From a phage, in the NCBI GenBank assembly GCA_011939005.1, contig GCA_011939005.1_4858.1: a stretch of DNA of 64,000 nt; one strand, written 5' to 3'. Below, one piece after another: positions 240 to 60,893 of this stretch. Each line of letters starts with the position of its first letter. Within the stretch, counting starts at the first letter, position 1. The position numbers and the translations under genes were made by a program. Under the pieces are notes generated by a model, which saw only the letters and a list, made by a program, of their open reading frames with translations, had not been told where the DNA came from and did no database searches.

Positions 240-263
240 CCCTCTTACCCGAAGGTAAGAGGG
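240..263 (-). terminator. intrinsic terminator hairpin, UUCG loop in transcript
   Basis: perfect 10-bp stem CCTCTTACC/GGTAAGAGG with CGAA loop on + (UUCG on -); A-run on + at 226-231; follows stop of 270-893; sequence identical to hairpin at 27500-27523. Confidence 0.5.
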
Positions 264-269
264 GTACAA

Positions 270-893
270 CTAACCTGCCAGAATACGTTCAACGATACGC
301 GCGGCTTGTAACGCTATATCGTCGTCAGCCGTAACACGCATCAGCGGGAACTTATCGCCGCCATCTGTGGTGATGTGGAAAGCAAAACGGTAGTGGTCGC
401 GTAACGCGTCCCAATCAGTCTGTGAGCGCAGATACTTCGCTGTCAGTACCTCATCATCCCAGTTCTTGCCCTGGGCCTCTGCGCGCTTCTTAAAGCGTTC
501 TGTGGCGGTTTCGTAGGATACATCGGTTGCCACGTAAAGTTTCGGTGCGTTAATGTGGTCTAATACCCGTGAACGGAAAACTTCCCCTTTACCATCGACG
601 CCCTGGTAGACAATAGTCGATTGACAAAAACGGTCAAAAATAACGACATCGTGCTCTGGTACAACGAAATCCATCGTGTATTGGAAATCCAGACACATCG
701 CTTTAGCAATGCGTTCGTTAGAAGCGTGCTGGATAACCAGAGAACGTGCACTAATACCGGCTTCAGTGGTATTCGTCGGGTGATTGACGATGATGACATT
801 AACGCCAGCGGAGCGCAACATCGCTTGAATCATTTTCGCGAGTGTTGATTTGCCAGAAAAGTCCGGACCATCCAGCGCCACTGAGTTTAACAT
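270..893 (-). CDS. tmk: thymidylate kinase-like P-loop kinase
   Basis: P-loop LDGPDFSGKST, DRF and lid-like regions align by eye with bacterial Tmk; start moved to ATG 893 (GGGGAAGAA SD) because a terminator hairpin 971-990 lies inside the longer ORF-track extension. Confidence 0.6.
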   Translation of the reverse strand: MLNSVALDGPDFSGKSTLAKMIQAMLRSAGVNVIIVNHPTNTTEAGISARSLVIQHASNERIAKAMCLDFQYTMDFVVPEHDVVIFDRFCQSTIVYQGVDGKGEVFRSRVLDHINAPKLYVATDVSYETATERFKKRAEAQGKNWDDEVLTAKYLRSQTDWDALRDHYRFAFHITTDGGDKFPLMRVTADDDIALQAARIVERILAG

Positions 894-970
894 TTTATTC
901 TTCCCCAAAAGTTTAATTAATTGTAGTGGTGTCACAATATAGCGACCAAACGTAAAGAAAAAAATAAAAC

Positions 971-990
971 AGGCACCCCGAAGGATGCCT
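971..990 (-). terminator. intrinsic terminator hairpin, UUCG loop
   Basis: stem AGGCACCC/GGATGCCT (one mismatch), CGAA loop on +, preceded on + by A-run 948-968; downstream of stop of 1005-1763. Confidence 0.4.
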
Positions 991-1004
991 GACATTAGAT
1001 GTTA

Positions 1005-1763
1005 TTACTCGATAGCCTTGTGGTTCTTCATTTCTGGTGTCCAGGTGTGCTCAATCCATGCTTCGATGACCGGCTTGATGCCCGGACTTTTGAAGAATGC
1101 ATTTAATGACGGCCATTCCCCTAACGCGTACTTGTTAGTGAAATTGAGCGACATTACACTGAAGCCTTCGCGTTTGTTAAACAACGCAGAAGGGGCCAAG
1201 GAATAAGACAACATGGCCTGCGGCGTATCCGATTCGGGACGCAGCAGTGTCATGCGGCGGGTGACACGCAGTTCAATATCGTTGAAGTTAGCCCGGAGGT
1301 CTTCTTTAAATTTGACACTGCGGAAGAAACGATTTCCTGTTTCGGATGCTTTATTTACCAATCGCTCGGTTTGCATCACGTCTTTAAAATACGCATTGAT
1401 GCATTCTTCAATGAAGACATAGCGTGGTGCAGCTTCACGCAGTGCTTCTAAGTCGAACTCTTTCCATGCAGGGATGAGTTCAGGCTTACGGGCGATGTGT
1501 TTAAAGAACATCCTGGCTGAGACTTCACGCAGTGCTTTCAGCAGCCCGCGAATAACAGTTTCCCGCGTTGCGTTAGTTGCGAAGAACTCAGTCGTGCCAT
1601 GTACAACGGTACCGCCTGTTTTAGCGCTGATGAGCTTATGCTCTATCATAATCGGCATCCCGCCCTTGCCGATCATCTCTTCGTTATACAAAAACACATA
1701 ACGATATTCGCCACAGGCAGTGGGGACGGACAGGAACTTTTTCTTCGTAGTATTAACAGTCAT
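1005..1763 (-). CDS. hypothetical protein
   Basis: 252-aa ORF, SD-like AAGAGAGAAA upstream of ATG 1763. Confidence 0.5.
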   Translation of the reverse strand: MTVNTTKKKFLSVPTACGEYRYVFLYNEEMIGKGGMPIMIEHKLISAKTGGTVVHGTTEFFATNATRETVIRGLLKALREVSARMFFKHIARKPELIPAWKEFDLEALREAAPRYVFIEECINAYFKDVMQTERLVNKASETGNRFFRSVKFKEDLRANFNDIELRVTRRMTLLRPESDTPQAMLSYSLAPSALFNKREGFSVMSLNFTNKYALGEWPSLNAFFKSPGIKPVIEAWIEHTWTPEMKNHKAIE

Positions 1764-1855
1764 GGTATTTCTCTCTTAGTTTAAGTTGGTGAGTTTTAAC
1801 CGACTCACAACGGCTTCTAGCATATGCTAAGGATGAAACGTAAATTTTGTACGTC

Positions 1856-1876
1856 TCCCTAAAATAATATCTATCC
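1856..1876 (-). promoter_or_regulatory. promoter-like motif GGATAGATATTATTTTAGGGAG (class 2, copy a)
   Basis: shares GATAGATATTAT(C/T)TTAGGGAG with 22361-22384; sits between terminator 1894-1915 and the start at 1763. Confidence 0.35.
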
Positions 1877-1893
1877 GAAAAACAATAGAGTCG

Positions 1894-1915
1894 ACCCACT
1901 CCCGAAGGAGTGGGT
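1894..1915 (-). terminator. intrinsic terminator hairpin, UUCG loop
   Basis: stem ACCCACTCC/GGAGTGGGT, CGAA loop on +; minus-strand T-rich tract follows; downstream of stop of 1921-2517. Confidence 0.5.
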
Positions 1916-1920
1916 ATAAC

Positions 1921-2517
1921 TCACTGATGATCAACTTTCGGTTCAGACCACTCGGGGACTGGCGGAAGTTTAATATCAGTTGCGTATTCTGATGGCACCG
2001 CGAGTGTGGTAAAGCCACGACACGCCAAATAGTGCTGCATTCGTGCTGCCTGATTCGGTGTATCGGTGATCACCAAATGGGTCTTACGCATAAGTGCGAG
2101 TACCGCCTGTCCTTCTTGCGGCGTAGGTGTGCGTGGATGCTTACTGATAATGCTCATTAACCAGTCACGCGCAATACCACCTACATTACAACTGGCCTCA
2201 CGCAAATCAACCACGCCTTCACCTTCACCCACCACCTGTTTGGTGGAGTTAGGATAAAAGCGATACGGTGCACGACGACGCTTACGACGTACTTCCGAAA
2301 TAGCACGTCCGAGTATCATCTGTGCATGTTTAACGCTACAGCCTTCCACCGGTCTACGCATGTTCGTTACTAAACAGGCAATCTCTAGTACCTTACCGAT
2401 TTGATAACGACGCTTAAAGCCATGACGACTTATGTCTACGTATTCTGGAAGATTGCCGTTTTTATTGATGTTTGCAACCGTAATCAAAAACAGCGAATCG
2501 AGAATCATCTCAGACAT
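1921..2517 (-). CDS. hypothetical protein
   Basis: ORF with ATG at 2517 (GTG at 2520) preceded by AAGGGGAGA SD. Confidence 0.5.
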   Translation of the reverse strand: MSEMILDSLFLITVANINKNGNLPEYVDISRHGFKRRYQIGKVLEIACLVTNMRRPVEGCSVKHAQMILGRAISEVRRKRRRAPYRFYPNSTKQVVGEGEGVVDLREASCNVGGIARDWLMSIISKHPRTPTPQEGQAVLALMRKTHLVITDTPNQAARMQHYLACRGFTTLAVPSEYATDIKLPPVPEWSEPKVDHQ

Positions 2518-2529
2518 CACAGTCTCCCC

Positions 2530-2901
2530 TTAAAACCCCGCAACGACTGCAGCCATAAAGTCATGTACGACTTTACGTTGTTCTGCAAGCGGGTAGCCAA
2601 ATTTAGTAATGTCGTGCATCCACCGAACCCGGTGAGTCCGACCATCGTGACTGAATGTGGAGCGCAGTACCAGGAAATAATCCGCACTGACTCGAAAATG
2701 TAACGAGCAGCTGCCATGTTTGGCTCGCACGGTCAACTGAATACGCTTTACACCGCCGCCTAAATACTTAGCGTCGATGTCGACCTGGTCAACCTCCGAC
2801 ACAGCCCGTAAGGCTTGCGCGACGTCTTCCAGGTCCCCGTTCTTGCTCACATTAGCGCCATGGAGCGCTGCGGTACAGAGTTGAAGCTCTCGATAGAACA
2901 T
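2530..2901 (-). CDS. hypothetical protein
   Basis: 123-aa ORF; AGGAG SD 8 nt upstream of ATG 2901; start lies 55 nt inside the 3' end of the upstream ORF. Confidence 0.45.
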   Translation of the reverse strand: MFYRELQLCTAALHGANVSKNGDLEDVAQALRAVSEVDQVDIDAKYLGGGVKRIQLTVRAKHGSCSLHFRVSADYFLVLRSTFSHDGRTHRVRWMHDITKFGYPLAEQRKVVHDFMAAVVAGF

Positions 2902-3455
2902 CCTTCTAGTCTCCTGTCCCTCCCATAGTTCAAGGGATTTTTATAATACCAATCTTCATGCACAGGAGTCACGCGGATATACCGGCTGTAAAACAACAAG
3001 TATTTGTAGAAGGTATCAATACTGACGTCTTTGTCTACCGATAAAAAGTAGTTTAAAGACGGGTCGTCTGGGAACGACACAAAGATACCGGTGAAGTACG
3101 CATCGGCATAGGGGCCATTAAACGGCGTCACTTCACACTTCAGGCAAGGTAAGCCAACCTGAAACGCGTTCTGTCCTGTCCAGTAAATTCCACGTGTGGT
3201 TGCATCGCGTGTTTTCCCATCGGGACGACAAACAACCCCTGCCATAAAACTGGAGCGTTGACTTGGGTCAGCCGCGTTTAAGAACCGGGTTATTCTGTCT
3301 ACTGAAAAATATTTTAACGTGCCAGGCGGTAATTGCCAGAACTGTCCCATCGCACGTACCACCTTCCAACCAGGGCGATTTCTTGCCCCGAAACGCTTTA
3401 CACAAAAAGTATATCGCGAGCCAGTCTGATGTGGCACGCTGCGGACAGCCACCAT
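2847..3455 (-). CDS. hypothetical protein
   Basis: 202-aa ORF; ATG 3455 immediately follows stop of GNAT gene (TAAnATG). Confidence 0.45.
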   Translation of the reverse strand: MVAVRSVPHQTGSRYTFCVKRFGARNRPGWKVVRAMGQFWQLPPGTLKYFSVDRITRFLNAADPSQRSSFMAGVVCRPDGKTRDATTRGIYWTGQNAFQVGLPCLKCEVTPFNGPYADAYFTGIFVSFPDDPSLNYFLSVDKDVSIDTFYKYLLFYSRYIRVTPVHEDWYYKNPLNYGRDRRLEGCSIESFNSVPQRSMALM

Positions 3456-3456
3456 G

Positions 3457-3921
3457 TTAAAGCTCCTTTACCATATCCTGGTATTCAGTTCGGAATCCGA
3501 AACGTTCATAAAACGCAATAGCACGGTCGTTATTACCGAGCACGTTAAGCTGCATCCATGCGCAGCCTTTTGATTTGCCGTAGTTTTCTACGGCTTCGAT
3601 TAGTTCATGGCCAACGCCTTGCGAACGAACCGATTCATCTACAAAAAAGTTATATACCCAGAGGAAACGTTGTCCCTTTTTGGTGTAGCCGAAGGTGATG
3701 AAACCAACAGCCACACCACGGTCATCAACGGCGCAAGCGCATAGCGTACCTTCACCCCAAACCTCCTCCAGTTTTGAGATTTGATTAAAACCATCACGAC
3801 CGTTTAAGTCGGCGAGTTTTATTTTCTGATCGTCGTATAACTTGTTGTGTAGTCCTAACAAGTCGGCGTAGTATTTCTTTCCATACGGGGAGTTGGGCTT
3901 GGTGACAAAAACGATTTTCAT
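3457..3921 (-). CDS. GNAT family N-acetyltransferase
   Basis: acetyl-CoA binding motif RSQGVGHELIEAVENYGKSKGC and ...AIAFYERFGF; GGAGGG SD; start ATG overlaps upstream stop (ATGA). Confidence 0.6.
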   Translation of the reverse strand: MKIVFVTKPNSPYGKKYYADLLGLHNKLYDDQKIKLADLNGRDGFNQISKLEEVWGEGTLCACAVDDRGVAVGFITFGYTKKGQRFLWVYNFFVDESVRSQGVGHELIEAVENYGKSKGCAWMQLNVLGNNDRAIAFYERFGFRTEYQDMVKEL

Positions 3922-4382
3922 CACACCCTCCAATACATCTGGTAAGCACCTACCTTAAAGCCAGCTTTGTCGTAGAGCGACTTCGCGGCAGCGTTACCGG
4001 CGTTCACGGACAGGTGAACAACTGTACACCCTTTTTCCGTTGCGGATTTCTTTACCGCATCCATCAACGCGGCGCCGTAACCTTTACCACGTGCGCTGCT
4101 GCTAACGACCAGTGAGGATACCGACATCATCGTCACACCCTCTTCAGTCATCGTGCGGTATTGCGCAAAGCCATACAAGACACCGTCGTCCACGACCGCC
4201 AGTAAACGACCCCGGAAGCGCTCGGCTAACGATTTAGCCGGCGTAAAACGGACATTAATACCCGTCTCTTTTCGATAGCTTTCTATTTCGCTTTTGTCCA
4301 GCTCGTTATAAAGCGCGAGGATATCTGTGGAATATTTCCTGCCGTTAGCCGTGTCTGGCCCCACTATGGTAATAATCTTCAT
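3921..4382 (-). CDS. GNAT family N-acetyltransferase (second, tandem)
   Basis: motif ARGKGYGAALMDAVKKSATEKGC ... AAAKSLYDKAGF; GAGGTGA SD; ATGA overlap with upstream gene. Confidence 0.6.
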   Translation of the reverse strand: MKIITIVGPDTANGRKYSTDILALYNELDKSEIESYRKETGINVRFTPAKSLAERFRGRLLAVVDDGVLYGFAQYRTMTEEGVTMMSVSSLVVSSSARGKGYGAALMDAVKKSATEKGCTVVHLSVNAGNAAAKSLYDKAGFKVGAYQMYWRV

Positions 4383-5515
4383 CAGTTCACCTCGGCCAGC
4401 GATTGCTTCGTCCACTCCATTAGACCCTCCGCCACGCGTACCAGTGCCGTGGTGAAAGCGTCTTCCATCGCCATTGCATTACGGTAACGTAACGTGGCCT
4501 CCTTCAGCTCATCCCCTTCTAGGTTCTTAAGCTCGGACTTCATCGCTTCCACTTCTTCGTAAATGCCGGTGTAACCCACAACACGGTTCTTTGTTCCACG
4601 TGCAGCAATAGATTTGATAAGTGCTTCCACAGCCTCTATTGCTTTCCCACACTGATGCATATCCAGCGATTTAATGGTTTCACCATACTCACCGTCACGC
4701 GCAATTGCCCAACTGACCTTACCACTATGGTGCTCAACCACAACGATATTTCCAGGGACAGGAAAAGCTTCCACCTTTTTAAAGGGATCGATGATGCCAA
4801 GCAACCCAGCAGCACGCTTAACTGCCCAGTTCGTAGACTTGCTGATTTGTTTTAAACCTGGGCCTTCAAATGCTTTACTTTTCTTCAGGGCGGTACGTGT
4901 GTAAACTGTGTACTTTTGCACGACCCCTTCGTACGCGTTTGTCTGTTTAGAAAACTTAACACACGCTTCAAAATCTGGCCGATCTTCAAAACAAATTTTA
5001 GACGTCCAGCTACTCGTGTGAACGTCGACCGCAGCGAGTGTTTTGTGGTCATCCAATAACGACATTCGTGCTTTGAGCTTATTGAGCTTACGCTCCATGA
5101 ATGCGGCTTTCGAAGTTATTTCTTTCAAACGGTCGGCTTGTTCTTTCGCTAGCGCTTCCGCGAAATCGTAAAAGCGTAATGCGAGCTTTTTCGAAAGTTT
5201 ACCCGCGCCCTTTGCGGTTGCGCCTAGTCCAGCACCCACTAACTTTCCAGTACCTTTAACAGCTTTCGCAGTAATGCGCCCTGCTGCGCGATGGATGCCA
5301 GCCCGCGGGTCAGTATCAGTCATAAACTGAGCACGCTCCATCGCTTCGCGCGATTCACGAGCAACCAACATATCTTCACCGTCGTCGGTTAAGCACCAAC
5401 GCTGACGAATCGCGCAAACCGCAGGGAAGTCGGGCTTAACTCCCAGACCTTCGAGTGCGACCAGGCGATCGTAGTCGTCAGTCAGGACTTCTAAATCTAA
5501 ATCGAGCGTCGACAT
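4382..5515 (-). CDS. hypothetical protein, possible virion protein
   Basis: 377-aa ORF, AAGGAG SD; Ala/Gly/Lys-rich central region. Confidence 0.5.
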   Translation of the reverse strand: MSTLDLDLEVLTDDYDRLVALEGLGVKPDFPAVCAIRQRWCLTDDGEDMLVARESREAMERAQFMTDTDPRAGIHRAAGRITAKAVKGTGKLVGAGLGATAKGAGKLSKKLALRFYDFAEALAKEQADRLKEITSKAAFMERKLNKLKARMSLLDDHKTLAAVDVHTSSWTSKICFEDRPDFEACVKFSKQTNAYEGVVQKYTVYTRTALKKSKAFEGPGLKQISKSTNWAVKRAAGLLGIIDPFKKVEAFPVPGNIVVVEHHSGKVSWAIARDGEYGETIKSLDMHQCGKAIEAVEALIKSIAARGTKNRVVGYTGIYEEVEAMKSELKNLEGDELKEATLRYRNAMAMEDAFTTALVRVAEGLMEWTKQSLAEVN

Positions 5516-5525
5516 CCCCTGCTCC

Positions 5526-5798
5526 TTACATCTGCGTCAAAGTATAGTAGTAGTTGCGATGTGGCCATCGAACACACAAGGCAAATATCTCTCCCGTATC
5601 CGGCGTGGTGTAAACTGTCTGAATTGGGTCATTTTCTTGTGGTGCGACTTTCGAATCAAAACCGTGGCGTTCCAGGTAATCGAAGAACTCATCCTCGGAG
5701 CCTGGGAACAAGCGAAGGCTAGTCACCTTCTTAATCGGTTTTGACGGCGTAGGGAAGAATGCTTCCCACAAACGACGAGCTAAACTGGTAGTTTGCAT
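5526..5798 (-). CDS. hypothetical protein
   Basis: 90-aa ORF with AGAGGT SD. Confidence 0.45.
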   Translation of the reverse strand: MQTTSLARRLWEAFFPTPSKPIKKVTSLRLFPGSEDEFFDYLERHGFDSKVAPQENDPIQTVYTTPDTGEIFALCVRWPHRNYYYTLTQM

Positions 5799-5828
5799 AA
5801 TAGCGACCTCTGATTAAAGGCAACGTGG

Positions 5829-6428
5829 TCATAATAAGCACAAGCTCTCAAGCCACAGATGTCCTTCAAGCGCATGGTGGTAACAAGGAATACCACACTG
5901 CTTAGCGTATTTCACGCCCATGGCAGTACCGCCGGTCGGATTACCTTGTTTATCTAAAGGCGCAGAGTAATAAACTGCGTCTACAGGCGTTGCTAAATCA
6001 TCGCCCATAATTATATTCAGATTACGGCCATGAAGCGCCCAGGCGAACTCCTGGAGCTTTTCTGGCGCGGGATGAAGCTTACCTACTATCTCACGATAGC
6101 GGTCATCCTGAGGGATTACACGGAACTCTACGTTGGGATTCTGTTTCTTGAGCCAGAGCTTTTTCTCATCGGGTAGGTAACAAATGAACTCATCATCCCA
6201 CGCCATTTTCTTGCCGGTGTTCTGGTCTATTGTATTCGCCCACTGTCGGGCAAATCGGAATTGCAATTGGTCTGGACCACACCAGCAGCCGCCAGAAGAA
6301 AAACGAATCGTGTAATCTTTGGCGTGCAGCGCATTAAACCCACGTAACAATCGCATGTACATTTCAGACATGGTATCTTCATCAGTCTTCCGAGAACCGA
6401 TTACCGCAATTTTATAAATCTTTTTCAT
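5829..6428 (-). CDS. SLOG-superfamily Rossmann-fold protein (DprA/LOG-like), putative
   Basis: N-terminal KIAVIGSR and C-terminal PTGGTAMG resemble DprA/LOG family signatures; strong AGGAGGT SD. Confidence 0.35.
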   Translation of the reverse strand: MKKIYKIAVIGSRKTDEDTMSEMYMRLLRGFNALHAKDYTIRFSSGGCWCGPDQLQFRFARQWANTIDQNTGKKMAWDDEFICYLPDEKKLWLKKQNPNVEFRVIPQDDRYREIVGKLHPAPEKLQEFAWALHGRNLNIIMGDDLATPVDAVYYSAPLDKQGNPTGGTAMGVKYAKQCGIPCYHHALEGHLWLESLCLL

Positions 6429-6477
6429 GGACTTACCTCCTATACGGAGTGGACGATTCGTAAGAAAAAATAAATAC

Positions 6478-6504
6478 CTACCCTCGCTAAACGGGCGAGG
6501 GTAG
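6478..6504 (-). terminator. intrinsic terminator hairpin
   Basis: stem CTACCCTCGC/GCGAGGGTAG; A-run on + side 6463-6470; downstream of stop of 6509-7126. Confidence 0.45.
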
Positions 6505-6508
6505 TGTC

Positions 6509-7126
6509 TTAAACAAACTCACGATAACGAAAACCGTTAAGCTTCGTGATAGTCACTTCTTCTAACAGCTTACACCCCCAGAAACCAGCCAAGTCGTATT
6601 CCAGACCAGGCAACGTTGTCTTGGTTAAGTCTTGGCCGATATGGTACGGTAGCGTAATGCGTGTGCGCGATTCGTAAACAAATGATTCACATTCATAGAC
6701 GAGGACGTATCGATCAGTCGGGATGTCGTACTCTACGTGGCATTGCGCGGGGTTTTCCCACGCCTTACTTACAACGATGCCGCGTTCTGCACACGCCGAT
6801 TCAAAACTGACCATTGCAGGTTCAGACCATACGCGCAAATCGGCCGGTTTACCTTTCGACAAATCAAACCATGTGAGATGTTCAGGTTTCAACGTGATTA
6901 TATCATTTAGGCTCAATTTGCGGTAACGCACAACCACATAGTCATCTGGCTTACTCTTATTAGTCAGCAAAGCACTTACACGACCGTCCGGTTCCGGTGG
7001 ACCATAACTCTCCACTCGGATACGTTCTGTGGTCAGGGGCGTATAAACGGTTTCAGCATTAAAAGCATTGACTAAATCGAGCAAGGTTTGACTATGATGG
7101 TGGTTAAAGTCAATAACAAAAGACAT
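6509..7126 (-). CDS. hypothetical protein
   Basis: start placed at internal ATG 7126 with AGGAGCGAGG SD; ORF-track start at 7159 lacks an SD. Confidence 0.5.
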   Translation of the reverse strand: MSFVIDFNHHHSQTLLDLVNAFNAETVYTPLTTERIRVESYGPPEPDGRVSALLTNKSKPDDYVVVRYRKLSLNDIITLKPEHLTWFDLSKGKPADLRVWSEPAMVSFESACAERGIVVSKAWENPAQCHVEYDIPTDRYVLVYECESFVYESRTRITLPYHIGQDLTKTTLPGLEYDLAGFWGCKLLEEVTITKLNGFRYREFV

Positions 7127-7186
7127 GCCTCGCTCCTGGTATTTGATTAAGGGGGTCATAATACTTCACAGGAAAATAATAAACAG

Positions 7187-7208
7187 TATAGGGGCCGAAG
7201 CCCCTATA
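7187..7208 (-). terminator. intrinsic terminator hairpin, UUCG loop
   Basis: stem TATAGGGGC/GCCCCTATA with CGAA loop on +; A-rich on + side upstream; follows stop of 7217-7606. Confidence 0.45.
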
Positions 7209-7216
7209 CGCTGTGT

Positions 7217-7606
7217 TTAATAATCGTACAAAGGATACCGTGCGGAAATTTCTTTACCTACCCAAAAAGTTAACTGGTGGGTATTAACGCTGCGGTGTGT
7301 TCGTACTGACGGGACAATTGTCGCTTTAACTTTCGGCGAACATGTACCGGCATCTATTGGCTGGTACGTCTTGCGCTTTGTGTTAACGAGATAAAAGCCA
7401 CCGCCCGGACACAGTTCAGAACGCCCGTAGTTGACCACGGCAAACTCACCCTTCTCCACTGTCACGACTGGTTCATCTTTGTCGCTAAATTTTACAGGTG
7501 CGTCGGTTTCCCACATCGGTTTATACTGCGGGAAGTCCTGAATGGTAAAGGCGTTTACTGGCGCAGTAACGCAGAGTATAAACACAGCTAATACAGCACG
7601 CATCAT
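7217..7606 (-). CDS. secreted/periplasmic protein (signal peptide)
   Basis: N-terminus MMRAVLAVFILCVTAPVNA has n-h-c signal peptide features with AxA-like cleavage site. Confidence 0.5.
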   Translation of the reverse strand: MMRAVLAVFILCVTAPVNAFTIQDFPQYKPMWETDAPVKFSDKDEPVVTVEKGEFAVVNYGRSELCPGGGFYLVNTKRKTYQPIDAGTCSPKVKATIVPSVRTHRSVNTHQLTFWVGKEISARYPLYDY

Positions 7607-7608
7607 AT

Positions 7609-8085
7609 CTAGTCCTCTTCCAGATAGGGTAGAAGCCAGTCCATTTTCTCCAAACGGTGAATCATGTTGCGAGTGTTTGGCGATACCTGTAGGGCATCAT
7701 GGAACTGTTTTTTGAAGTGATGCCAGTGATAAGAGAAAGGTTTTGTTGGATAGCCCGCTTCCTTGAGAACTTCTTCCCACTCCAACCTCTGGATAAGGTG
7801 CTCGTCGACCAAAACCTCAACTAAAGCCTTCCAGGCACTCCGACGAAAATGCCGGGACAACCGACGTTTTAAATCGGCATAACTTTTTCTTTTACTGGAC
7901 CGTATTGCTGGTGAAGTCTTACTGTGATGAAAAGAACGTCTCGTAAGATTCAGAATCTTAACAGGAGTGCCCCTAAGCGAACTGTCTGCAATATTCAGTT
8001 CATGCTGAGGAACAAGCTCCACACGGCGGATGACGTTTATACGGGTTCCATCCGTATCTCGTGTTTCGTAAGCAACACGTATCAT
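7609..8085 (-). CDS. hypothetical basic protein
   Basis: 158-aa ORF, Arg/Lys-rich segment KRKSYADLKRRLSRHFRR. Confidence 0.45.
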   Translation of the reverse strand: MIRVAYETRDTDGTRINVIRRVELVPQHELNIADSSLRGTPVKILNLTRRSFHHSKTSPAIRSSKRKSYADLKRRLSRHFRRSAWKALVEVLVDEHLIQRLEWEEVLKEAGYPTKPFSYHWHHFKKQFHDALQVSPNTRNMIHRLEKMDWLLPYLEED

Positions 8086-8102
8086 TATACACTCTCGCTC
8101 GT

Positions 8103-8585
8103 TTAGACGAAATGACCTTCTGCCATCGAAAGAAAAATGGGAACGCTTTCGGCGTAATGTGTTAAAAGCTTTTCCTCCGGTGGCGTGTGTGACGAAATAA
8201 CATTGTAGTTCGTCATACGAAAATACCGTTGGCCGTCAGCAGCAATATACCATCGGTCAATCTGGAAGCCTTGTTGGTGAAAGAATCCTAGCGCGGGAAT
8301 GTTGGTCGGGTGAACACGACAGCTGACGTGTTTACGATCGGAGTTCTGCTGAAGATACTTAAGCATAAACCTGCCGACACCACCGCGGCGAGATTCTTCG
8401 GGTACAACCATATAGACCAAATGGCCAGGTTCCCATGCCATGATTCCCCGCACGATATCATCCTCAACAAACATCGTGAGTTTAATAGGCTCCTCGCGGA
8501 TACTGTTTAAGTCGCGCACCCATTCAACCAGTTCAGGATAAACATTCGCGGGAATCTTATCCTCGACCACATTAATAACAAGCAT
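8103..8585 (-). CDS. GNAT-like acetyltransferase (third)
   Basis: motif ESRRGGVGRFMLKYLQ ... PALGFFHQQGF; ATG at 8585 overlaps upstream stop (ATGA). Confidence 0.4.
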   Translation of the reverse strand: MLVINVVEDKIPANVYPELVEWVRDLNSIREEPIKLTMFVEDDIVRGIMAWEPGHLVYMVVPEESRRGGVGRFMLKYLQQNSDRKHVSCRVHPTNIPALGFFHQQGFQIDRWYIAADGQRYFRMTNYNVISSHTPPEEKLLTHYAESVPIFLSMAEGHFV

Positions 8586-9223
8586 CACTTCTCTCCACTA
8601 AGCAGGTATATGGCTTCTGCCAATGACAGGGACGGTTTTAACAGCATGTGTAGCGGCAGGATTGTTGAACGGTGAAACTGTGCCGGTGTTTTTGCCAGGT
8701 GTTCCAGATAGCGATTGACTGACATTTCTTGCCAATCGATAGTAGGTCGAACCCAGCTTATCTGTAACCATTTCCCCAATGAGACGTCACGCTTACCGCG
8801 TGGCATAATTATACTTAACTTGTACCCGTGGTCGAACTGACGCGGTGGATGACCTGGTTCCCAAGGAACTTCGGGACCTAACGCATCTGCAAGAAACCCT
8901 TCTTTAATTAACACATTTCTGACGGCAGCGAATATCCGTCCTCGTTGCGCGGTGATCTCTTTGACGTGTGCCATGGCATTTAGTTTACGTTTGGTAATTG
9001 CAGCGGAAAGCGCGCTGACAAACTGCCCTTCAACATACGGGGCGTTTAAGCAGCTACGAAACGGCACTACGTAAAACGCCTCCCACAATACTTCTTCGAC
9101 TGCCGCCAATAACAGCGCTTCTTTCTCAGCTGCAGTAAAATCCACAGACAGCATTTTGGTAAACGAACCTAATATAGCGCTAAACGGTAGTAGTACAGAC
9201 CGTTGACGAAATTGTAATTGCAT
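8585..9223 (-). CDS. hypothetical protein
   Basis: 212-aa ORF, AAGGAA SD upstream of ATG 9223. Confidence 0.5.
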   Translation of the reverse strand: MQLQFRQRSVLLPFSAILGSFTKMLSVDFTAAEKEALLLAAVEEVLWEAFYVVPFRSCLNAPYVEGQFVSALSAAITKRKLNAMAHVKEITAQRGRIFAAVRNVLIKEGFLADALGPEVPWEPGHPPRQFDHGYKLSIIMPRGKRDVSLGKWLQISWVRPTIDWQEMSVNRYLEHLAKTPAQFHRSTILPLHMLLKPSLSLAEAIYLLSGEK

Positions 9224-9280
9224 TTTTTATATTCCTTTTGGGTCGTGCTTACACAGTAATTTACGTAGACGTAATAAAAA

Positions 9281-9304
9281 AAATAAGAAGCCTCTTCCCC
9301 CGGA
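9281..9304 (-). terminator. intrinsic terminator hairpin
   Basis: stem CCTCTTC/GAAGAGG around a CCCCCGGAGGA loop; A-run 9266-9275 on +; follows stop of 9321-9893. Confidence 0.4.
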
Positions 9305-9320
9305 GGAGAAGAGGGCTTAA

Positions 9321-9893
9321 TTACACTTTAGGTGCGGTAGTCTGTTGCTTCGCGTTGCTCTTATTCAGCTTGTATTCAACAACTTTGGCACCAATGGCCA
9401 TCGAATTGTAAGCAAGCGTCTTAATCGGCCATGTAAAGAACACGGCCTGAGCAAACAAAGGTAAGAGCGCCACAATCAGCACATCCGTTAACTCTTCTGG
9501 ATAATGCAGGTGTGTGTCCCAGGCCATCGCGCCAGTAATCACCACAGTGGTCAGCACCAACAAAACGATAAGGACTTTCTGAGGACCTTTTAAATTCGGC
9601 CACAGGGTCAATAACGTTTCTTTGGCAAGCTTTTCATCCATACTCTCCACAGCTGCTTTCGCCTGTGATTCAAACGTCTTCGCCATATTCCCAACCTGTT
9701 CAAGAATCAGGGGGCGTAGTGACGTAAGAATCACGTTAGCAGGCTTAGTGACATCAATTACAACATCACTTCCCAAAGCGGTCTGAGCGGCTTTTTTTAG
9801 TCGGGCGCTCTCTTCCAGGCTTAATTTGTTGGTGCCCGCCTGGATAAGAACATCCAACACATCCGTCGAAGCTTCTTGCAAAGACTGCGACAT
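9321..9893 (-). CDS. integral membrane protein
   Basis: two to three hydrophobic helices (VLIVLLVLTTVVITGAMAW, VLIVALLPLFAQAVFF); GGAGGAAAT SD. Confidence 0.5.
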   Translation of the reverse strand: MSQSLQEASTDVLDVLIQAGTNKLSLEESARLKKAAQTALGSDVVIDVTKPANVILTSLRPLILEQVGNMAKTFESQAKAAVESMDEKLAKETLLTLWPNLKGPQKVLIVLLVLTTVVITGAMAWDTHLHYPEELTDVLIVALLPLFAQAVFFTWPIKTLAYNSMAIGAKVVEYKLNKSNAKQQTTAPKV

Positions 9894-9895
9894 CG

Positions 9896-10513
9896 CTATT
9901 TCCTCCGGCGTCTTCCTTTCCGCTTACCGGCCTTAGCTTTAGGAACCTTAACCTTGGGCGGAAGGAGACTATTTAGGTTTAATAAGTTGACCCTGACGAA
10001 GATATTACCCACCGCCACGGCATCGATACTGTGTTCATCCAATACCGATAAGTCGCACCGGGTATGGTTTGCGTAGAGTTTGGTCACCGCTTGCTGCATA
10101 TGCGATTTATCTGTACCCTTTGCTTCCACACCAACGTACGACTTCACAATAATAGGATTAAACCCATGGAGATATTTTTCGGGAAACACGTCCCAAAGCG
10201 TTCGCCGCAACATCAGTTGCAATTCCACCCCAGATTCGTACGCTGAGAGCTTAGCTCTTCGCATGAACGGAGTTTCGGTAGCGACAAAAGTCGGCCTTGC
10301 CAGTTTTAAAAACTCACGAAAGCGTTCTTCTAATTCTACCAAACGCGCATCGCGTTTCCCTACGCACTCACCAAAAGAGCCATTGTGCGTAGGGTCCGCA
10401 ACATGAGCCGTGCCCGCCCAGACAACTTCACCTTGAGGTTGGCCAAATTCCCAGTCGATAACCGCCATCCCAAGATGGGCAGTACCGGGGTCAACAGCCG
10501 CAATCCTCACCAT
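9896..10513 (-). CDS. RuvC-like Holliday junction resolvase
   Basis: IAAVDPGTAHLGMAVI, VATETPF, KSHMQQAV and DAVAVGN align by eye with RuvC catalytic regions; start set at MVRIAAV (ATG 10513), alternative ATG at 10546. Confidence 0.6.
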   Translation of the reverse strand: MVRIAAVDPGTAHLGMAVIDWEFGQPQGEVVWAGTAHVADPTHNGSFGECVGKRDARLVELEERFREFLKLARPTFVATETPFMRRAKLSAYESGVELQLMLRRTLWDVFPEKYLHGFNPIIVKSYVGVEAKGTDKSHMQQAVTKLYANHTRCDLSVLDEHSIDAVAVGNIFVRVNLLNLNSLLPPKVKVPKAKAGKRKGRRRRK

Positions 10514-10545
10514 ACTGTCGGGTAACCTCGGCTCAGGAATCAGCA

Positions 10546-11433: not shown

Positions 11434-11953
11434 TTAAAAATTCTCCTGGGCGAAACCCGTCGAGTGCCCGTTTAGTTACCAGCTGCGCCAGCTTACGGGG
11501 AGTTGGGTCAACAAAAGTAATCGCAATCGTGCCTTTGAAAGATAGATGGTGCGGGATTAAGCGCGCCTCATACGATTCCATTTCCGGGGTAATCGGTTCA
11601 ACCATGATATCATAGGTGTCAAGCTGGAGACCCAGCTCATCGACAATATACGGAACTAATTCATGGCTCCATTCCGCCGCACCCTTCGGGACTTCAACCG
11701 TTACGTCTTTAAGTAACTTGTTTAAGTCCGCGCGAGTCAGGTAAAACTCTTGGGTGCCATGTACCCCATTTACAAAGCGCGCCGCAACTTTAGACTCCAC
11801 ACCTTTAGCGCGTCGCTCTGCTTGGGTTAACGGCCACACCCCACGTGGGTTAAACTCGTAGTTATTTTCACTATACGATAACTTAAAAACGTAATTGATT
11901 CTCTCAATCAGAATCTGTTTCGGGGTTTTTGATAAATCTATACGGTATCCCAT
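11426..11953 (-). CDS. hypothetical protein
   Basis: 175-aa ORF with SD-like AAGTGAGAGA. Confidence 0.5.
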   Translation of the reverse strand: MGYRIDLSKTPKQILIERINYVFKLSYSENNYEFNPRGVWPLTQAERRAKGVESKVAARFVNGVHGTQEFYLTRADLNKLLKDVTVEVPKGAAEWSHELVPYIVDELGLQLDTYDIMVEPITPEMESYEARLIPHHLSFKGTIAITFVDPTPRKLAQLVTKRALDGFRPGEFLNG

Positions 11954-11960
11954 AAATCTC

Positions 11961-14144: not shown

Positions 14145-14155
14145 CGGAGACCCCA

Positions 14156-16900: not shown

Positions 16901-16930
16901 ACAAAAAAAAAAGAAAAAGAAATAAGGTTT

Positions 16931-16952: not shown

Positions 16953-16964
16953 ACCTTTTCTTTT

Positions 16965-47591: not shown

Positions 47592-47597
47592 AAAGCA

Positions 47598-47623
47598 CTA
47601 CCCTCTCCCGAAGGAGAGGGTAG
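47598..47623. terminator. bidirectional intrinsic terminator between convergent genes
   Basis: 11-bp stem CTACCCTCTCC/GGAGAGGGTAG with CGAA loop; T-run on + after, A-run before. Confidence 0.6.
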
Positions 47624-47632
47624 CCTTTTATT

Positions 47633-53029: not shown

Positions 53030-53045
53030 AACAAAAAAAGAAAGG

Positions 53046-53069
53046 CCTCTCTACCCTAGGGTAGAGAGG
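53046..53069. terminator. bidirectional intrinsic terminator between convergent genes
   Basis: stem CCTCTCTAC/GTAGAGAGG; T-run on + after (53072-53080) and A-run before (53030-53045). Confidence 0.55.
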
Positions 53070-53078
53070 TACTTTTAT

Positions 53079-55788: not shown

Positions 55789-55804
55789 CGGGGCCGAAGC
55801 CCCG
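55789..55804 (-). terminator. intrinsic terminator hairpin, UUCG loop
   Basis: stem CGGGGC/GCCCCG with CGAA loop on +; A-run 55775-55788 on +; follows stop of 55813-56184. Confidence 0.5.
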
Positions 55805-58199: not shown

Positions 58200-58812
58200 T
58201 AGCCGCTTCCTCGGTTTCTACTACAACGTCGTTGTGATCGACGATGGCGTTTTTAGGGAGTTCTTTCGAATTATTAGCCAGAGCTTCAGCCAACAGAACC
58301 TCGGCTTGTTCCACGGTATGACCGTTATTCAGCGCCTGCTTCACGAACTTCACTTTCGCGTTATACGTGGAGAAGATTTCGATACTGGTGCCCTGAATAT
58401 CCATCGCAAGCATGTTTGCCCGCTGGTCAATCAGGGACAGTTCGGTGTGGTCGACGTGGAACTGGTCTTTGATTTCTTTCCACGTTTTGCTGTTATCGTT
58501 CAGCATGTCAAACACCGGCACAGCCTTAGCATCTGCCTCAACAATCAGTTTACCGAACAGCTCTTTGCCTTGCTGACACATGCCAAGGAAAGCCGCCTGT
58601 GCTTCATCCAGCGCTTTCAACGTAAAGGCTTTCAGCTCTTCGTGCGTAATGGCTTCAGTTACTTCACGCTCCCGATCAATTCTGCCTGACAGGAATTCGG
58701 TACTTTCGATAAACACAGCTTGTTTTTTCAACACAGACTGCATCATCGCCTTGACGAAATCGCGGGCGTCTTTACGTGGGTTATAAGCGGGTTTCTTTTT
58801 GCGACGACTCAT
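58192..58812 (-). CDS. hypothetical protein
   Basis: start at ATG 58812 with AAAGGA SD (MSRRKKKPAYNP...). Confidence 0.45.
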   Translation of the reverse strand: MSRRKKKPAYNPRKDARDFVKAMMQSVLKKQAVFIESTEFLSGRIDREREVTEAITHEELKAFTLKALDEAQAAFLGMCQQGKELFGKLIVEADAKAVPVFDMLNDNSKTWKEIKDQFHVDHTELSLIDQRANMLAMDIQGTSIEIFSTYNAKVKFVKQALNNGHTVEQAEVLLAEALANNSKELPKNAIVDHNDVVVETEEAANV

Positions 58813-58872
58813 CGTAATAATCCTTTTGAAATTAGGGGTTGGGTGTATACACAATATACACCCAAAACGTGA

Positions 58873-59256
58873 TTAACTTGCATCGTGTGGAACAGTCACC
58901 CAATCGTGCCATTTTTCAGAGTAAAGACGATAAGCCATCTTTGGATTCTGATCGACACTACCGGCCGGGTTCTCATTCCACAACACGTACGTATATAACT
59001 CGTACGACGAAATGTTACGGATACTTGACGTGCGGGTGACGTAATACGTCAACCCGCGTTGGTTAAGGAACAGGCCGCTGTAATGTTCAGTGACCATGTA
59101 GTAATGAAACGCCTGGTTGATAGTGGCGTCGGTACAGAGTTTCTTAGCGACGTCTTCTACGCCGGGATACGCCTTTAGAATGTTTTCGAGAAAACTTGCT
59201 AAAGTCATTCCGATGTAGGGTGGCAGCGGCTCTGCTGGACGCGGCGGAGTGAGCAT
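58873..59256 (-). CDS. hypothetical protein
   Basis: 127-aa ORF whose 5' part overlaps the 3' end of the helicase gene; start uncertain. Confidence 0.35.
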   Translation of the reverse strand: MLTPPRPAEPLPPYIGMTLASFLENILKAYPGVEDVAKKLCTDATINQAFHYYMVTEHYSGLFLNQRGLTYYVTRTSSIRNISSYELYTYVLWNENPAGSVDQNPKMAYRLYSEKWHDWVTVPHDAS

Positions 59257-60850
59257 GTGATTTCCTTACAACGTAGGGGGATGTCGCGATACGGAACGAC
59301 AATACGACATCCTTGAGTGATTTCTGGCGGGCATTCAAGTAATTGCAATGCTTCGGTACGTTATACGCATGGAATAACCACACCGTTGGGTCTATTTCAC
59401 CCCACTCGTTGTGGAGAATCTTACGTGGACGACCAGCCATCTGTTCGTTCAGTTGCTGGTCTTCTACCGGGGTTGAGATGTACATGTGCACCAACCCAGG
59501 TTTATCGACCGCAGTCCCCGCTTTCCCCGGTGTGGAGATAGAGAAGTCTGCTTGGATAAAGTCGTCATACGAATCACCTGCATTATATTTCGACACCATT
59601 AAGGCGTGGAATATAGGGTCACGCGACAACTTATCTTTCACATACTCGGTAAAGAACTCACACATTGCAACGGTTGCAAAGAGTATCAAACATTTCTGAC
59701 CCGGCTGGTACCGCTTAAGAAACGATTTCTCAACCACATCCCAAATCATGTTTGCGTATTCTAAGTGTAAGTTCTCTTTAATCAGTTTCCCTTCGAAGAG
59801 TTTGTGGTTATACGGCGTCATCTTCGACGCCCACCACGCAAACTTCTTATCATCTAAACGGTAGTACAACGCTTTCACGTCGACTACCGGAACGATAGGG
59901 ATACTGATACGGCACTCCATTGGGAAACGCTCCATGTACCGTTCAGCGATAAACGCTTTACTGGAACCAGGAGTTAGCGTTGCAGACATTTCAATACTTG
60001 GTGGCGGGTTAAGCATTACGCCTGCCATGTAGACCAGGTGGAAATGCTCATGTACCTCATCCATTCCCAACAACCCGATACCCAGTACGTCGTAAAACGT
60101 ATCCAAGTCTACAGGGTTTGTTGCGGCTGTGTTAATGTACTCCTTCAGGAAACGCTGTAGCGTCACCGTAGGGAGGATTATCAGCTTAATCCCACGTCTA
60201 TCCAGCTCACCCGATTTACCCATCTCCAGGGCCTCGTAGATGGCCTGCACGCCGGTACAAACCAGCACGCCATCGCGAGATTCCCTTAAGCCCGTCGGGT
60301 CGTCAGTGGTATCGAATATCCACTTCGGAACATAGGTCGGTCGAATGATAAGACCTGTCCTAACGCCCTTCTTAACAACCACTTTCATGAAGCTTTTAGA
60401 TTTCCCGGCTCCGGTCTGGATGGCAAATATCGTCTGCTGTCGACCTGGGGTCATCGCCGCTTCGCTAACTTCGTTCTGATAATAGAAACGTGAGTTAGGA
60501 TCGGTGACCTCGAGATCGAATCCGTAATTATCAAACGTGCACTTATAAGGTTCTGCACGTTCGGGATGGTGCTCTGTCAGCTTGTACTGAAAAGCATATT
60601 CAATTGCTGCCCGTTGGAGGATATGTTTAATCTTCTCAGCGAACACTTTATGGAAAATGAATGTCCTTAAAGACGGAATGTGGGCGTAGTACGCGTCACC
60701 GCGTTCCGTAGTTATTCGTCCATGTTGCTTGCCCATCTTTGGGGCGTGCATATTCTCTTCGGCCCACGCGAGTATGGCCCTTTCAGCCTGGCGGATGGGG
60801 ACTTCAACCCGTACCCCCATACTCGTGTAAGTCATTTGAATTTCTACCAT
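59144..60850 (-). CDS. SF2 DExH-box helicase
   Basis: motif I IQTGAGKSKS, motif II GMDEVHE, motif III SAT; start at ATG 60850 just downstream of terminator 60875-60893; Arg-rich C-terminal tail. Confidence 0.55.
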   Translation of the reverse strand: MVEIQMTYTSMGVRVEVPIRQAERAILAWAEENMHAPKMGKQHGRITTERGDAYYAHIPSLRTFIFHKVFAEKIKHILQRAAIEYAFQYKLTEHHPERAEPYKCTFDNYGFDLEVTDPNSRFYYQNEVSEAAMTPGRQQTIFAIQTGAGKSKSFMKVVVKKGVRTGLIIRPTYVPKWIFDTTDDPTGLRESRDGVLVCTGVQAIYEALEMGKSGELDRRGIKLIILPTVTLQRFLKEYINTAATNPVDLDTFYDVLGIGLLGMDEVHEHFHLVYMAGVMLNPPPSIEMSATLTPGSSKAFIAERYMERFPMECRISIPIVPVVDVKALYYRLDDKKFAWWASKMTPYNHKLFEGKLIKENLHLEYANMIWDVVEKSFLKRYQPGQKCLILFATVAMCEFFTEYVKDKLSRDPIFHALMVSKYNAGDSYDDFIQADFSISTPGKAGTAVDKPGLVHMYISTPVEDQQLNEQMAGRPRKILHNEWGEIDPTVWLFHAYNVPKHCNYLNARQKSLKDVVLSFRIATSPYVVRKSHAHSAASSRAAATLHRNDFSKFSRKHSKGVSRRRRRR

Positions 60851-60874
60851 GCTGCCCCTCTTCGCACAAAAAAA

Positions 60875-60893
60875 GAGGGGCGCAAGGCCCCTC
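60875..60893 (-). terminator. intrinsic terminator hairpin
   Basis: stem GAGGGGC/GCCCCTC with GCAAG loop; A-run 60867-60874 on +; follows stop of 60897-63002. Confidence 0.5.

Follow-up and report, generated by a model that had tools for sequence, protein, structure and literature searches.

The closest described systems are the giant phages phiKZ and 201phi2-1. In phiKZ, 133 termination sites were located by ONT-cappable-seq, 61 of which carry a common stem-loop and TTAT motif (5'-BCCYCCCCHWWDGGGRRGGBYTTATKYYGT-3') (PMC10914365). In 201phi2-1, 132 sites were mapped, the eight that were tested terminate in vivo, and motif A resembles that of phiKZ (PMC11512511). Likewise, transcription of phage AR9 stops at predicted terminators (PMC5312081). 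Hairpins with the same C(UUCG)G loop and closing pair as those described below are reported as abundant, mostly intergenic elements of phage T4, a large virulent enterobacterial phage, where the papers citing Tuerk et al. 1988 PNAS (PMC8948821, PMC4371310) tie them to termination and to the stability of mRNA. The E. coli rho-independent terminators (d'Aubenton Carafa et al. 1990, cited in PMC3972237) share the GC-rich hairpin, a tetraloop preference, a U-tract, placement after stop codons and bidirectionality at convergent genes.

Here we analysed a 64-kb stretch of phage DNA (the window), which carries genes for split RNA polymerase (RNAP) beta/beta' subunits and is ~97% identical to the Salmonella jumbo phage SPN3US and 97-99% identical to SPN3US-group phages. 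Its source is an SPN3US-like, nucleus-forming giant phage of Salmonella/E. coli. It belongs to the same lineage as phiKZ and 201phi2-1, with which it has in common a phage nucleus and multisubunit RNAPs of the split type, and its intergenic hairpins resemble theirs in the pyrimidine-rich 5' arm, the purine-rich 3' arm, the C-G closing pair, the frequent occurrence of TTAT in the tail (here at no fixed position), the placement behind genes including the major capsid gene, and the existence of bidirectional examples. UUCG was also the commonest loop in a 50-kb sample of phiKZ (5 of ~17 loci). In contrast, phiKZ stems are shorter than those of the window, which mostly measure 10-11 bp, the phiKZ tail reads TTATG(Y)YGT whereas a long T-rich tract of 10-14 nt is found here, and UUCG is far more dominant here (~40-70% of candidates). 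A scan for the literal phiKZ motif that allowed up to three mismatches gave zero matches in the window, compared with five in 50 kb of phiKZ as positive control. The phiKZ and 201phi2-1 sites were mapped whereas those reported here are predicted; the searched literature yielded no transcript 3'-end data or transcriptome for SPN3US and its close relatives. From their structure, placement, strand bias, conservation and covariation we infer that the hairpins are very probably factor-independent (intrinsic) transcription terminators of this SPN3US-like jumbo phage.

Results

Hairpin census in the window

Strong hairpins occur at 25 intergenic loci of the window; their stems measure 6-12 bp and their dG values range from -10.6 to -22.8 kcal/mol. 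About 20 of these begin 4-14 nt 3' of a stop codon (overall range 4-31 nt), in line with a preliminary description of this DNA that had reported about 20 GC-rich hairpins directly after stop codons. Read on the transcribed strand, 13 of the 25 loci have a UUCG loop, which is a clear plurality at about half of the loci, so that the earlier statement that most loops read UUCG was a slight overstatement. All but one of the 13 are closed by a C-G pair, and two further loops read UCCG and UACG. The 5' arm is the pyrimidine-rich one in 15 hairpins versus 4. Measured against 100 dinucleotide shuffles of the window, perfect tetraloop hairpins with a stem of at least 8 bp were enriched 12-fold (12 observed, 1.0 expected, shuffle maximum 4), and hairpins with TTCG/CGAA loops numbered 11, compared with 0.15 expected (shuffle maximum 1). 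All 11 are intergenic, although no more than 2.9 kb of the 64-kb window lies between genes. The individual hairpins are as follows.

240-263, minus strand: C(UUCG)G, 7 nt past the thymidylate kinase (gp166 homolog) stop; tail TATTGTCTTTTTT; dG -17.2; repeat copy 1
970-991, minus strand: C(UUCG)G with one G.U pair, 14 nt past the gp167 stop; adjoining T-run (TTTTATTTTTTT); classic terminator form
1894-1915, minus strand: C(UUCG)G, 6 nt past the gp168 stop; T-run 11 nt downstream, then promoter-like motif B
6478-6504, minus strand: 10-bp stem, 7-nt loop, 5 nt past the gp175 stop; T-rich tail
7186-7209, minus strand: C(UUCG)G, 8 nt past the gp176 stop; T-rich tail
9291-9314, minus strand: C(UCCG)G, 7 nt past the gp180 stop; tail CTTCTTATTTTTTTT
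16930-16953, both strands: bidirectional, between convergent gp185 (plus) and gp186 (minus); UUCG on the plus strand; T-rich tails on both strands
17609-17626, minus strand: C(UUCG)G, 8 nt past the gp188 stop
22407-22432, minus strand: C(UUCG)G, 31 nt past the major capsid protein stop; adjoining T-run
26886-26903, plus strand: UUAG loop, 9 nt past the stop of the plus-strand DnaB-like helicase gene; without a T-run and therefore not a canonical terminator
26970-26997, minus strand: strong hairpin past the small ORF gp194; no T-run
27242-27261, minus strand: UCGA loop, 9 nt past the small ORF gp195; short tail TTTAAC
27443-27464, plus strand: C(UUCG)G, with UUCG and T-rich tail on the plus strand; faces the terminator at 27500-27523
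27500-27523, minus strand: C(UUCG)G, 7 nt past the gp196 stop; adjoining T-rich tail; repeat copy 2
28836-28859, minus strand: C(UACG)G, 12 nt past the gp198 stop; adjoining T6 run
29596-29620, minus strand: 10-bp stem, 5-nt loop CUUGU, 7 nt past the gp201 stop; position kept in 6/6 relatives
35206-35227, minus strand: UUCG closed by U.G, 6 nt past the gp207 stop; T8 run
36502-36524, minus strand: 8-bp stem, 7-nt loop, past the gp210 stop; followed by CTTTTTT
37997-38022, minus strand: C(UUCG)G, 11 nt past the internal head protein (gp212) stop; tail ACCCTTTCTTTTTTT
39309-39329, minus strand: in the gp213/gp212 intergenic region, immediately 5' of the ribosome-binding site of gp212; no T-run; more probably involved in stability or translation than in termination
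40683-40699, minus strand: short hairpin, 5 nt past the gp214 stop; no T-run
47597-47624, both strands: bidirectional, 12 bp, between convergent gp218 (plus) and gp219 (minus); UUCG on the minus strand; T-rich tails on both strands; dG -22.8
53045-53070, both strands: bidirectional, palindromic CUAG loop, between the convergent DNA polymerase (plus) and gp223 (minus) genes; T-rich tails on both strands
55789-55804, minus strand: C(UUCG)G, 9 nt past the gp226 stop; followed by TTTTCTTTTTTTT
58839-58865, minus strand: AT-rich 11-bp stem, 8 nt past the gp229 stop; no T-run
60854-60893, minus strand: terminator hairpin at 60875-60893, loop CUUGC then T7, 4 nt past the RNAP subunit gene gp231

The tails on both strands at the three sites between convergent genes agree with the bidirectionality already proposed for them. 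At the last locus, an alternative hairpin (60854-60881) overlaps the terminator hairpin; its formation would sequester the Shine-Dalgarno sequence of gp230. Recurrent promoter-like motifs lie downstream of several hairpins, which is the expected pattern at transcription-unit boundaries.

Strand bias and conservation

The SPN3US genome contains 28 UUCG hairpins, all located at most 120 nt past a stop codon. In 23 the UUCG reading is sense-only and in four the hairpin lies between convergent genes, leaving one that is antisense-only (p = 3e-6), namely 27443-27464, which is separated by 566 nt from the end of the closest plus-strand gene upstream of it (DnaB). G.U pairs lengthen the stem on the sense strand in 13 cases versus 3. 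Among 52 SPN3US candidates, 22 have a UUCG loop and every other loop occurs at most twice, the closing pair is C-G in 48, and the 5' arm is pyrimidine-rich in 39 versus 10 (mean 66% pyrimidine). The tail of the 52 candidates is T-rich from +4 to +14, with TTAT at most 16 nt past the stem in 26 and A at +7 in 16; TTAT sits inside the longer T-tract at no fixed position.

In each of six relatives from five genera (STsAS, Asesino, Machina, Kwan, CR5 and Phobos), UUCG accounts for 5-9 of 9-13 candidates. Hairpin position and loop are conserved across five other genera. At the orthologous 3' ends of the capsid, internal head protein and gp188 genes, C(UUCG)G is invariant and the stems differ by compensatory substitutions: a UUCG hairpin lies 3' of the capsid gene in 6/6 relatives and in phiKZ, orthologues of 37997-38022 have UUCG in 6/6 relatives with different stems, and orthologues of 17609-17626 have UUCG in STsAS, Asesino, Machina and Kwan with a different stem in each. 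For 9291-9314, whose own loop is UCCG, the orthologues in Machina, Kwan and Phobos read UUCG. The C-G closing pair was found in 17/17 orthologous hairpins (alignment A1). In the covariation set, stem cells were paired in 96% compared with 51% after shuffling, a percentage inflated by the way the set was picked, for which the vicinity of orthologous stop codons was searched for the best hairpin enclosing TTCG, and the covariation score was 1.13 compared with 0.20. The covariation supports the predicted helix. Together with the stop-codon placement, the 23:1 sense orientation of UUCG, the 13:3 sense bias of G.U pairs and the T-rich tails, the covarying stems support the terminator behaviour at the RNA level that had been assigned to these hairpins.

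T-tracts and a possible stabilising role

In the window, the first TTT lies 0-3 nt past the stem in 17 of the 28 strand-specific readings and 4-11 nt past it in nine, and is absent in two. Across SPN3US, the distance from the stem to the first TTTT has a bimodal distribution (0-3 nt in 23 candidates, 5-10 nt in 26). A T-run 4-11 nt past a perfect stem is found at 240-263, 1894-1915, 9291-9314, 16930-16953 (minus reading), 17609-17626 and 37997-38022. The gap of 5-8 nt noted in the preliminary description exists at about six sites, but the special polymerase to which it was thought to point is not indicated: the intervening bases are mostly T-rich or stem-extending, the gap shrinks once bulged stem extensions are allowed, and it is not conserved at orthologous sites. 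Being T-rich and unconserved, it therefore does not identify the polymerase. Five hairpins have no T-run at all (26886, 26970, 39309, 40683 and 58839), and the canonical terminator model does not fit every hairpin.

These five, and the six with a displaced T-run, would suit hairpins that mainly act as RNA-stabilising 3' (or 5') structures, blocking 3'-to-5' exonucleases and setting mature ends without releasing the polymerase, while the transcripts end or are processed elsewhere. C(UUCG)G is a thermodynamically extreme loop, such hairpins stabilise T4 mRNAs according to the work cited in PMC8948821 (Tuerk 1988; T4 gene 32), and the SPN3US annotation includes a 3'-5' exoribonuclease and a ribonuclease. 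As the main function, stabilisation is nevertheless improbable, because at least five of the first eight nucleotides past the stem are T in 18/28 readings, and because none of the relatives has lost the long T-rich tail although the stems change, whereas a pure exonuclease block needs no U-tract. Moreover, the bidirectional sites carry tails on both sides, and the similar elements of phiKZ and 201phi2-1 coincide with primary 3' ends (PMC10914365, PMC11512511). Terminators and RNA-stabilising 3' structures are inseparable by sequence alone and not mutually exclusive.

Which RNA polymerase reads the signals

The phage family suggests that the signals are most likely read by the phage virion and non-virion multisubunit RNAPs and not by the host polymerase: the split RNAP genes are present, phiKZ is transcribed independently of its host, exclusively by its own enzymes (PMC10914365), and a phage nucleus is formed by SPN3US and Asesino (PMC13282480). 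The preference for phage over host RNAP in the preliminary description is plausible on this basis, although not for its original reason, the T-run gap. It is very unlikely that we are dealing with ordinary terminators for the Salmonella/E. coli RNAP transcribing these phage genes. Hairpin and U-tract do have the form recognised by bacterial RNAP, 201phi2-1 terminators function in uninfected host cells (PMC11512511), and E. coli rho-independent terminators include UUCG and GAAA loops (d'Aubenton Carafa 1990, as cited in PMC3972237); however, the phage encodes two multisubunit RNAPs, the SPN3US DNA is enclosed in the phage nucleus (PMC13282480), and sigma-70-like promoters are not enriched (15 found, 23.6 expected). 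In addition, loop, closing pair and arm composition are sharply unlike those in a 200-kb E. coli K-12 sample run through the same pipeline, a small baseline of 21 terminator-like hairpins: UUCG occurs in 1/21 compared with 25/62 phage hairpins (p = 0.002), closing C in 8/21 compared with 48/52, and pyrimidine-rich 5' arms in 6 versus 11 against 39 versus 10. Terminator density in the K-12 sample is ~2.5 times lower than in the phage.

Identical copies and recurring stems

The hairpins at 240-263 and 27500-27523 had been described as identical over 25 nt. The quoted string indeed matches exactly at both sites (241-267 and 27501-27527; 0 expected), but it is 27 nt long, and the maximal exact repeat comprises 29 nt (239-267 and 27499-27527); a third copy is present in SPN3US. 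Identical 10-nt arms form 4 pairs compared with 0.02 expected under a position-independent model, and the stem CCTACTCC recurs at non-orthologous sites in three genera. DNA-level palindromes, such as mobile REP/MITE-like elements, protein-binding sites or recombination/replication signals, would account for these identities and for their extension 5 nt past the hairpin in the two window copies, yet they are an extremely improbable explanation given that no strand preference would be expected of them, whereas loop orientation tracks the genes, G.U pairs are biased towards the sense strand and it is on the 3' side of that strand that the T-rich tail is located, that the copies have no flanking target duplications and share at most a few flanking bases, and that orthologous stems change by compensation.

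On the intrinsic-terminator reading, the identical copies are members of the terminator population that share sequence through copying or gene conversion and not by chance. A further-reaching idea, which we regard as rather unlikely, is that the SPN3US/Erwinia branch of nucleus-forming jumbo phages uses a sequence-constrained terminator 'code' (a C-G-closed UUCG cap, a few recurring pyrimidine-rich 5' arms and a long T/TTAT tail), read specifically by the non-canonical multisubunit RNAPs of the phage or by a putative phage RNA-binding factor and spreading as copy-and-paste cassettes within and between genomes. If true, this would explain the identical non-orthologous arms and the sharp difference from host terminators.

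Discussion

In the mechanism that we propose for the predicted terminators, the nascent RNA past the stop codon would fold into a GC-rich hairpin of 7-12 bp, for which the extra-stable C(UUCG)G tetraloop would provide nucleus and cap at about half of the sites. The T-rich tract of 10-14 nt that comes next gives a weak rU:dA hybrid, beside which the forming hairpin would release the transcript, and after release the same hairpin could shield the 3' end from 3'-to-5' exonucleases. The pyrimidine-rich 5' arm ending in CC, the purine-rich 3' arm, the C-G closing pair and the T-rich tail, often with TTAT, form a clade-wide style.

The UUCG-capped terminators are a real finding but not a new kind of element, because their loop choice is common to related giant phages and already known from T4. 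T4 is transcribed by a modified host RNAP, whereas the hairpins described here are most likely read by the phage's own polymerases. To our knowledge, the biochemistry of termination by the split multisubunit RNAPs of jumbo phages has hardly been studied. Since the hairpins are clearly defined in loop, closing pair, arm composition and tail, and differ in these from those of the host, they make good templates for in vitro termination assays, and for enterobacterial synthetic biology they are candidates for terminators that are short and strong and in part bidirectional. For the SPN3US group itself, the predicted terminators number ~45-60 per genome; they form a set that is compact and conserved, and useful as markers for transcription units in SPN3US-like genomes.

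The window belongs to an SPN3US-like jumbo phage

Megablast assigned the window to the genus Seoulvirus, the jumbo phages of the SPN3US group, with 97–99% identity to SPN3US, EC001, JN03 and others; its counterpart in the SPN3US record is the antiparallel stretch at ~30.4–94.4 kb. Mapping of the SPN3US coding sequences revealed 68 genes, nearly all on the minus strand, including the major head protein, a DnaB-like helicase, DNA polymerase, internal head proteins and several split RNA-polymerase beta/beta' subunits, and only 2.9 kb of the window is intergenic DNA. In Pfam searches, 63002-64000 (minus) matched RNA_pol_Rpb2_6, and 60897-63002 (minus) weakly matched Rpb1_5. A 164-aa ORF at 3921-4415 (minus), between the gp171 and gp172 homologs (gp numbers are those of SPN3US), is additional to the SPN3US gene set, and gp206 is absent; 35156-35232 is just 77 nt of intergenic DNA containing a UUCG terminator.

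UUCG-capped hairpins follow window genes

Judged from sequence, the post-gene hairpins of the window are most likely intrinsic terminators. Folding of all intergenic regions on both strands, together with a stem-loop scan, revealed 25 strong hairpin loci (dG -10.6 to -22.8 kcal/mol), ~20 of which start 4–14 nt past a stop codon. UUCG forms 12 loops on the transcribed strand and a 13th, at 27443-27464, on the plus strand, and 12 of these 13 are closed by a C-G pair; one UCCG and one UACG loop were also found. While the preliminary description had most loops reading UUCG, the tetraloop is indeed common but accounts for about half of them. In comparison with 100 dinucleotide shuffles, perfect tetraloop hairpins with stems of 8 bp or longer were enriched (12 observed, 1.0 expected), as were hairpins with TTCG/CGAA loops (11 observed, 0.15 expected), all 11 of which are intergenic. 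The sole long perfect hairpin found inside a gene, a 10-bp tetraloop hairpin at 31111-31134 with a sense-strand GUCU loop, lies within the coding sequence of virion protein gp202.

T-rich tails were found on both strands of the three hairpins between convergent genes, in line with their proposed bidirectionality. The T-run had also been described as separated from the stem, and an offset of 4–11 nt was indeed observed at six hairpins, although the bases in between either are rich in T or lengthen the stem. Because the stem-to-T-run distance varies between orthologues, and partly vanishes once stems may extend through bulges, this spacing is not conserved, and the suggestion of a polymerase-specific gap was rejected. 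The hairpins at 26886, 26970, 39309, 40683 and 58839 lack a T-run and more probably act in stability or translation. Searches for known structured RNAs returned nothing meaningful (Rfam at gathering thresholds over the whole window, Rfam by E-value for 26700-27700, and a tRNA scan), indicating that the hairpins are not parts of such RNAs. A generic promoter/terminator scan of 1-20000, with 33 found and 20.6 expected, was too permissive to inform.

The hairpin signal is strand-specific

The whole SPN3US genome was assembled and run through the pipeline used on the window. Among its 52 post-stop hairpins with T-rich tails, the loop is UUCG in 22 and any other sequence at most twice, and 48 of 52 have a C-G closing pair. 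The 5' arm is pyrimidine-rich in 39/52 and purine-rich in 10/52, and the tail is T-rich over +4 to +14, with A at +7 in 16/52 and TTAT in 26/52 candidates.

Since a perfect palindrome folds alike on both strands, only loop, G.U pairs and tail can reveal a strand preference. All 28 UUCG hairpins of SPN3US follow a stop codon by no more than 120 nt; the loop reads UUCG in the sense orientation only at 23 of them and in the antisense only at one, and four are located between convergent genes (binomial p=3e-6). In addition, G.U pairs extend the stem 13 times on the sense strand versus three times on the antisense strand. A DNA palindrome or mobile element was therefore rejected as an explanation, because loop, G.U pairs and tail are all strand-specific.

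Hairpin positions are conserved while stems change

Syntenic regions of 43–46 kb were fetched from six relatives in five genera (STsAS, Asesino, Machina, Kwan, CR5 and Phobos), whose nucleotide identity in the capsid region is 72–85%. UUCG represents 5–9 of the 9–13 terminator-like hairpins in each relative, and the 3' ends of the orthologous capsid, internal head protein, gp188, gp180 and gp201 genes carry a hairpin in every phage. At the first three of these, C(UUCG)G is invariant and the stem sequence changes. Across 17 aligned sequences, pairing is kept in 96% of stem cells compared to 51% after shuffling, the former value being inflated by picking the best hairpin around TTCG per site; cells changed on both sides numbered 72 versus 23, with covariation scores of 1.13 and 0.20, respectively. 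Positional conservation with differing stems does not depend on this picking.

Host terminators differ, and phiKZ shares the architecture

As a host baseline, 200 kb of E. coli K-12 were passed through the same pipeline, resulting in 21 terminator-like hairpins. UUCG was found in 1/21 of these compared to 25/62 in the phage (Fisher p=0.002), and the closing base was C in 8/21 compared to 48/52 (p=3e-6). Unlike in the phage, the K-12 5' arm is not pyrimidine-rich (6 versus 11). The lone UUCG hairpin of the K-12 sample (L015, 2228-2247) lies inside the cryptic prophage e14, outside the core chromosome.

In 50 kb of phiKZ, UUCG was again the commonest loop (5 of ~17 loci, one of them behind the capsid gene), with CCCTCTCC/GGAGAGGG-type stems and TTATG tails. 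These stems and tails agree with the published motif BCCYCCCCHWWDGGGRRGGBYTTATKYYGT, present at 61 of 133 phiKZ termination sites mapped by ONT-cappable-seq (PMC10914365). A literal search for this motif gave five matches in the phiKZ sample and none in the window; membership of the window hairpins in the phiKZ sequence motif was thus rejected, and what is shared is the architecture.

Identical copies and recurring stems

The hairpins after the gp166 and gp196 homologs had been described as sharing an identical repeat of 25 nt. The repeat is exact but longer: a 27-mer occurs twice (241-267 and 27501-27527; 0 expected), and the maximal identity spans 29 nt (239-267 and 27499-27527). In SPN3US, CCCTCTTACC-UUCG-GGTAAGAGGG occurs three times, after gp196, gp166 and gp061, the first two being counterparts of the window's copies, whose likeness continues as far upstream as the stop codon, TAGT(A/T)GTACC. 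Among 30 SPN3US terminators, four identical 10-nt arm pairs were observed compared to 0.02 expected under a position-specific arm model; measured against a position-independent model, identical 10-nt arms are ~200-fold in excess within SPN3US. The stem CCTACTCC is shared by non-orthologous sites of SPN3US, Asesino and Machina; in these three genera the following terminator stem stands behind genes that are not orthologous:

Machina (L009) 20049-20072 and 34107-34128; Asesino (L008) 26595-26618; SPN3US 113924-113947: terminator (A)CCCTACTCC-UUCG-GGAGTAGGG(T)

The excess of arm pairs together with the recurrence across genera indicates that the repeats are not due to chance, and suggests terminator copying or gene conversion, or selection that favours a small number of stem sequences.

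Neighbouring promoter-like motifs and unusual loci

Recurrent promoter-like motifs lie directly downstream of several hairpins, which would fit transcription-unit boundaries.

166-178, 29444-29456 and 37947-37959, minus strand: exact 13-mer AGATATATATTAC within the longer shared motif TTTCAGATATATATTACCTAGGTGA
1862-1874, 22170-22182 and 22368-22380, minus strand: second recurrent motif, ATAGATATTATCT(TAGGG)

The AGATATATATTAC 13-mer stands upstream of the gp165, gp200 and gp211 homologs, shortly past terminators, and has six matches at up to two mismatches (0.94 expected). It is probably a class of phage-RNAP promoter and resembles the AT-rich phiKZ early promoter. ATAGATATTATCT(TAGGG), located upstream of gp190 and just past the terminators of the capsid gene and gp168, has seven such matches (0.86 expected) and probably represents a second promoter class.

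Between the DnaB-like helicase gene (plus) and gp196 (minus), the 650 nt of 26878-27530 are dense in strong hairpins and carry two 48-aa ORFs, gp194 and gp195. Here, 27443-27464 (plus), the genome's only UUCG hairpin against local genes, faces the 27500-27523 terminator. No canonical terminator belongs to the helicase gene itself, which suggests either that its 3' UTR is long and runs antisense to the small ORFs or that the stretch encodes an RNA missing from the annotation, and the plus-strand hairpin may end helicase read-through across the antisense of the two tiny ORFs. At 60854-60893 (minus), the terminator hairpin behind the RNAP subunit gene gp231 lies at 60875-60893 and is followed by T7. 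Its 3' arm is also used by a more stable hairpin (60854-60881, dG -16.7), in whose own 3' arm the Shine-Dalgarno sequence of gp230, a helicase gene, is buried; because the two folds are mutually exclusive, the locus may act as a translational switch.

Proposed mechanism and polymerase

Intergenic C(UUCG)G hairpins of phages have been familiar since T4 (Tuerk 1988, as cited in PMC8948821), and phiKZ-like phages already have known conserved terminator motifs. Our literature search found no transcriptome, 3'-end mapping or earlier terminator description for the SPN3US group. A fast-folding C(UUCG)G-capped hairpin beside a U-rich hybrid would release the transcript, and the same hairpin would then shield its 3' end; more speculatively, the 5' arm may be pyrimidine-rich because such an arm is unable to pair with the U-tract, avoiding a competing fold. 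Transcription of phiKZ does not depend on the host (PMC10914365), SPN3US, like Asesino, builds a phage nucleus (PMC13282480), and transcripts of AR9, phiKZ and 201phi2-1 end at such hairpins (PMC5312081, PMC10914365, PMC11512511). On these three grounds, we infer that the polymerases reading the terminators are the phage's own.
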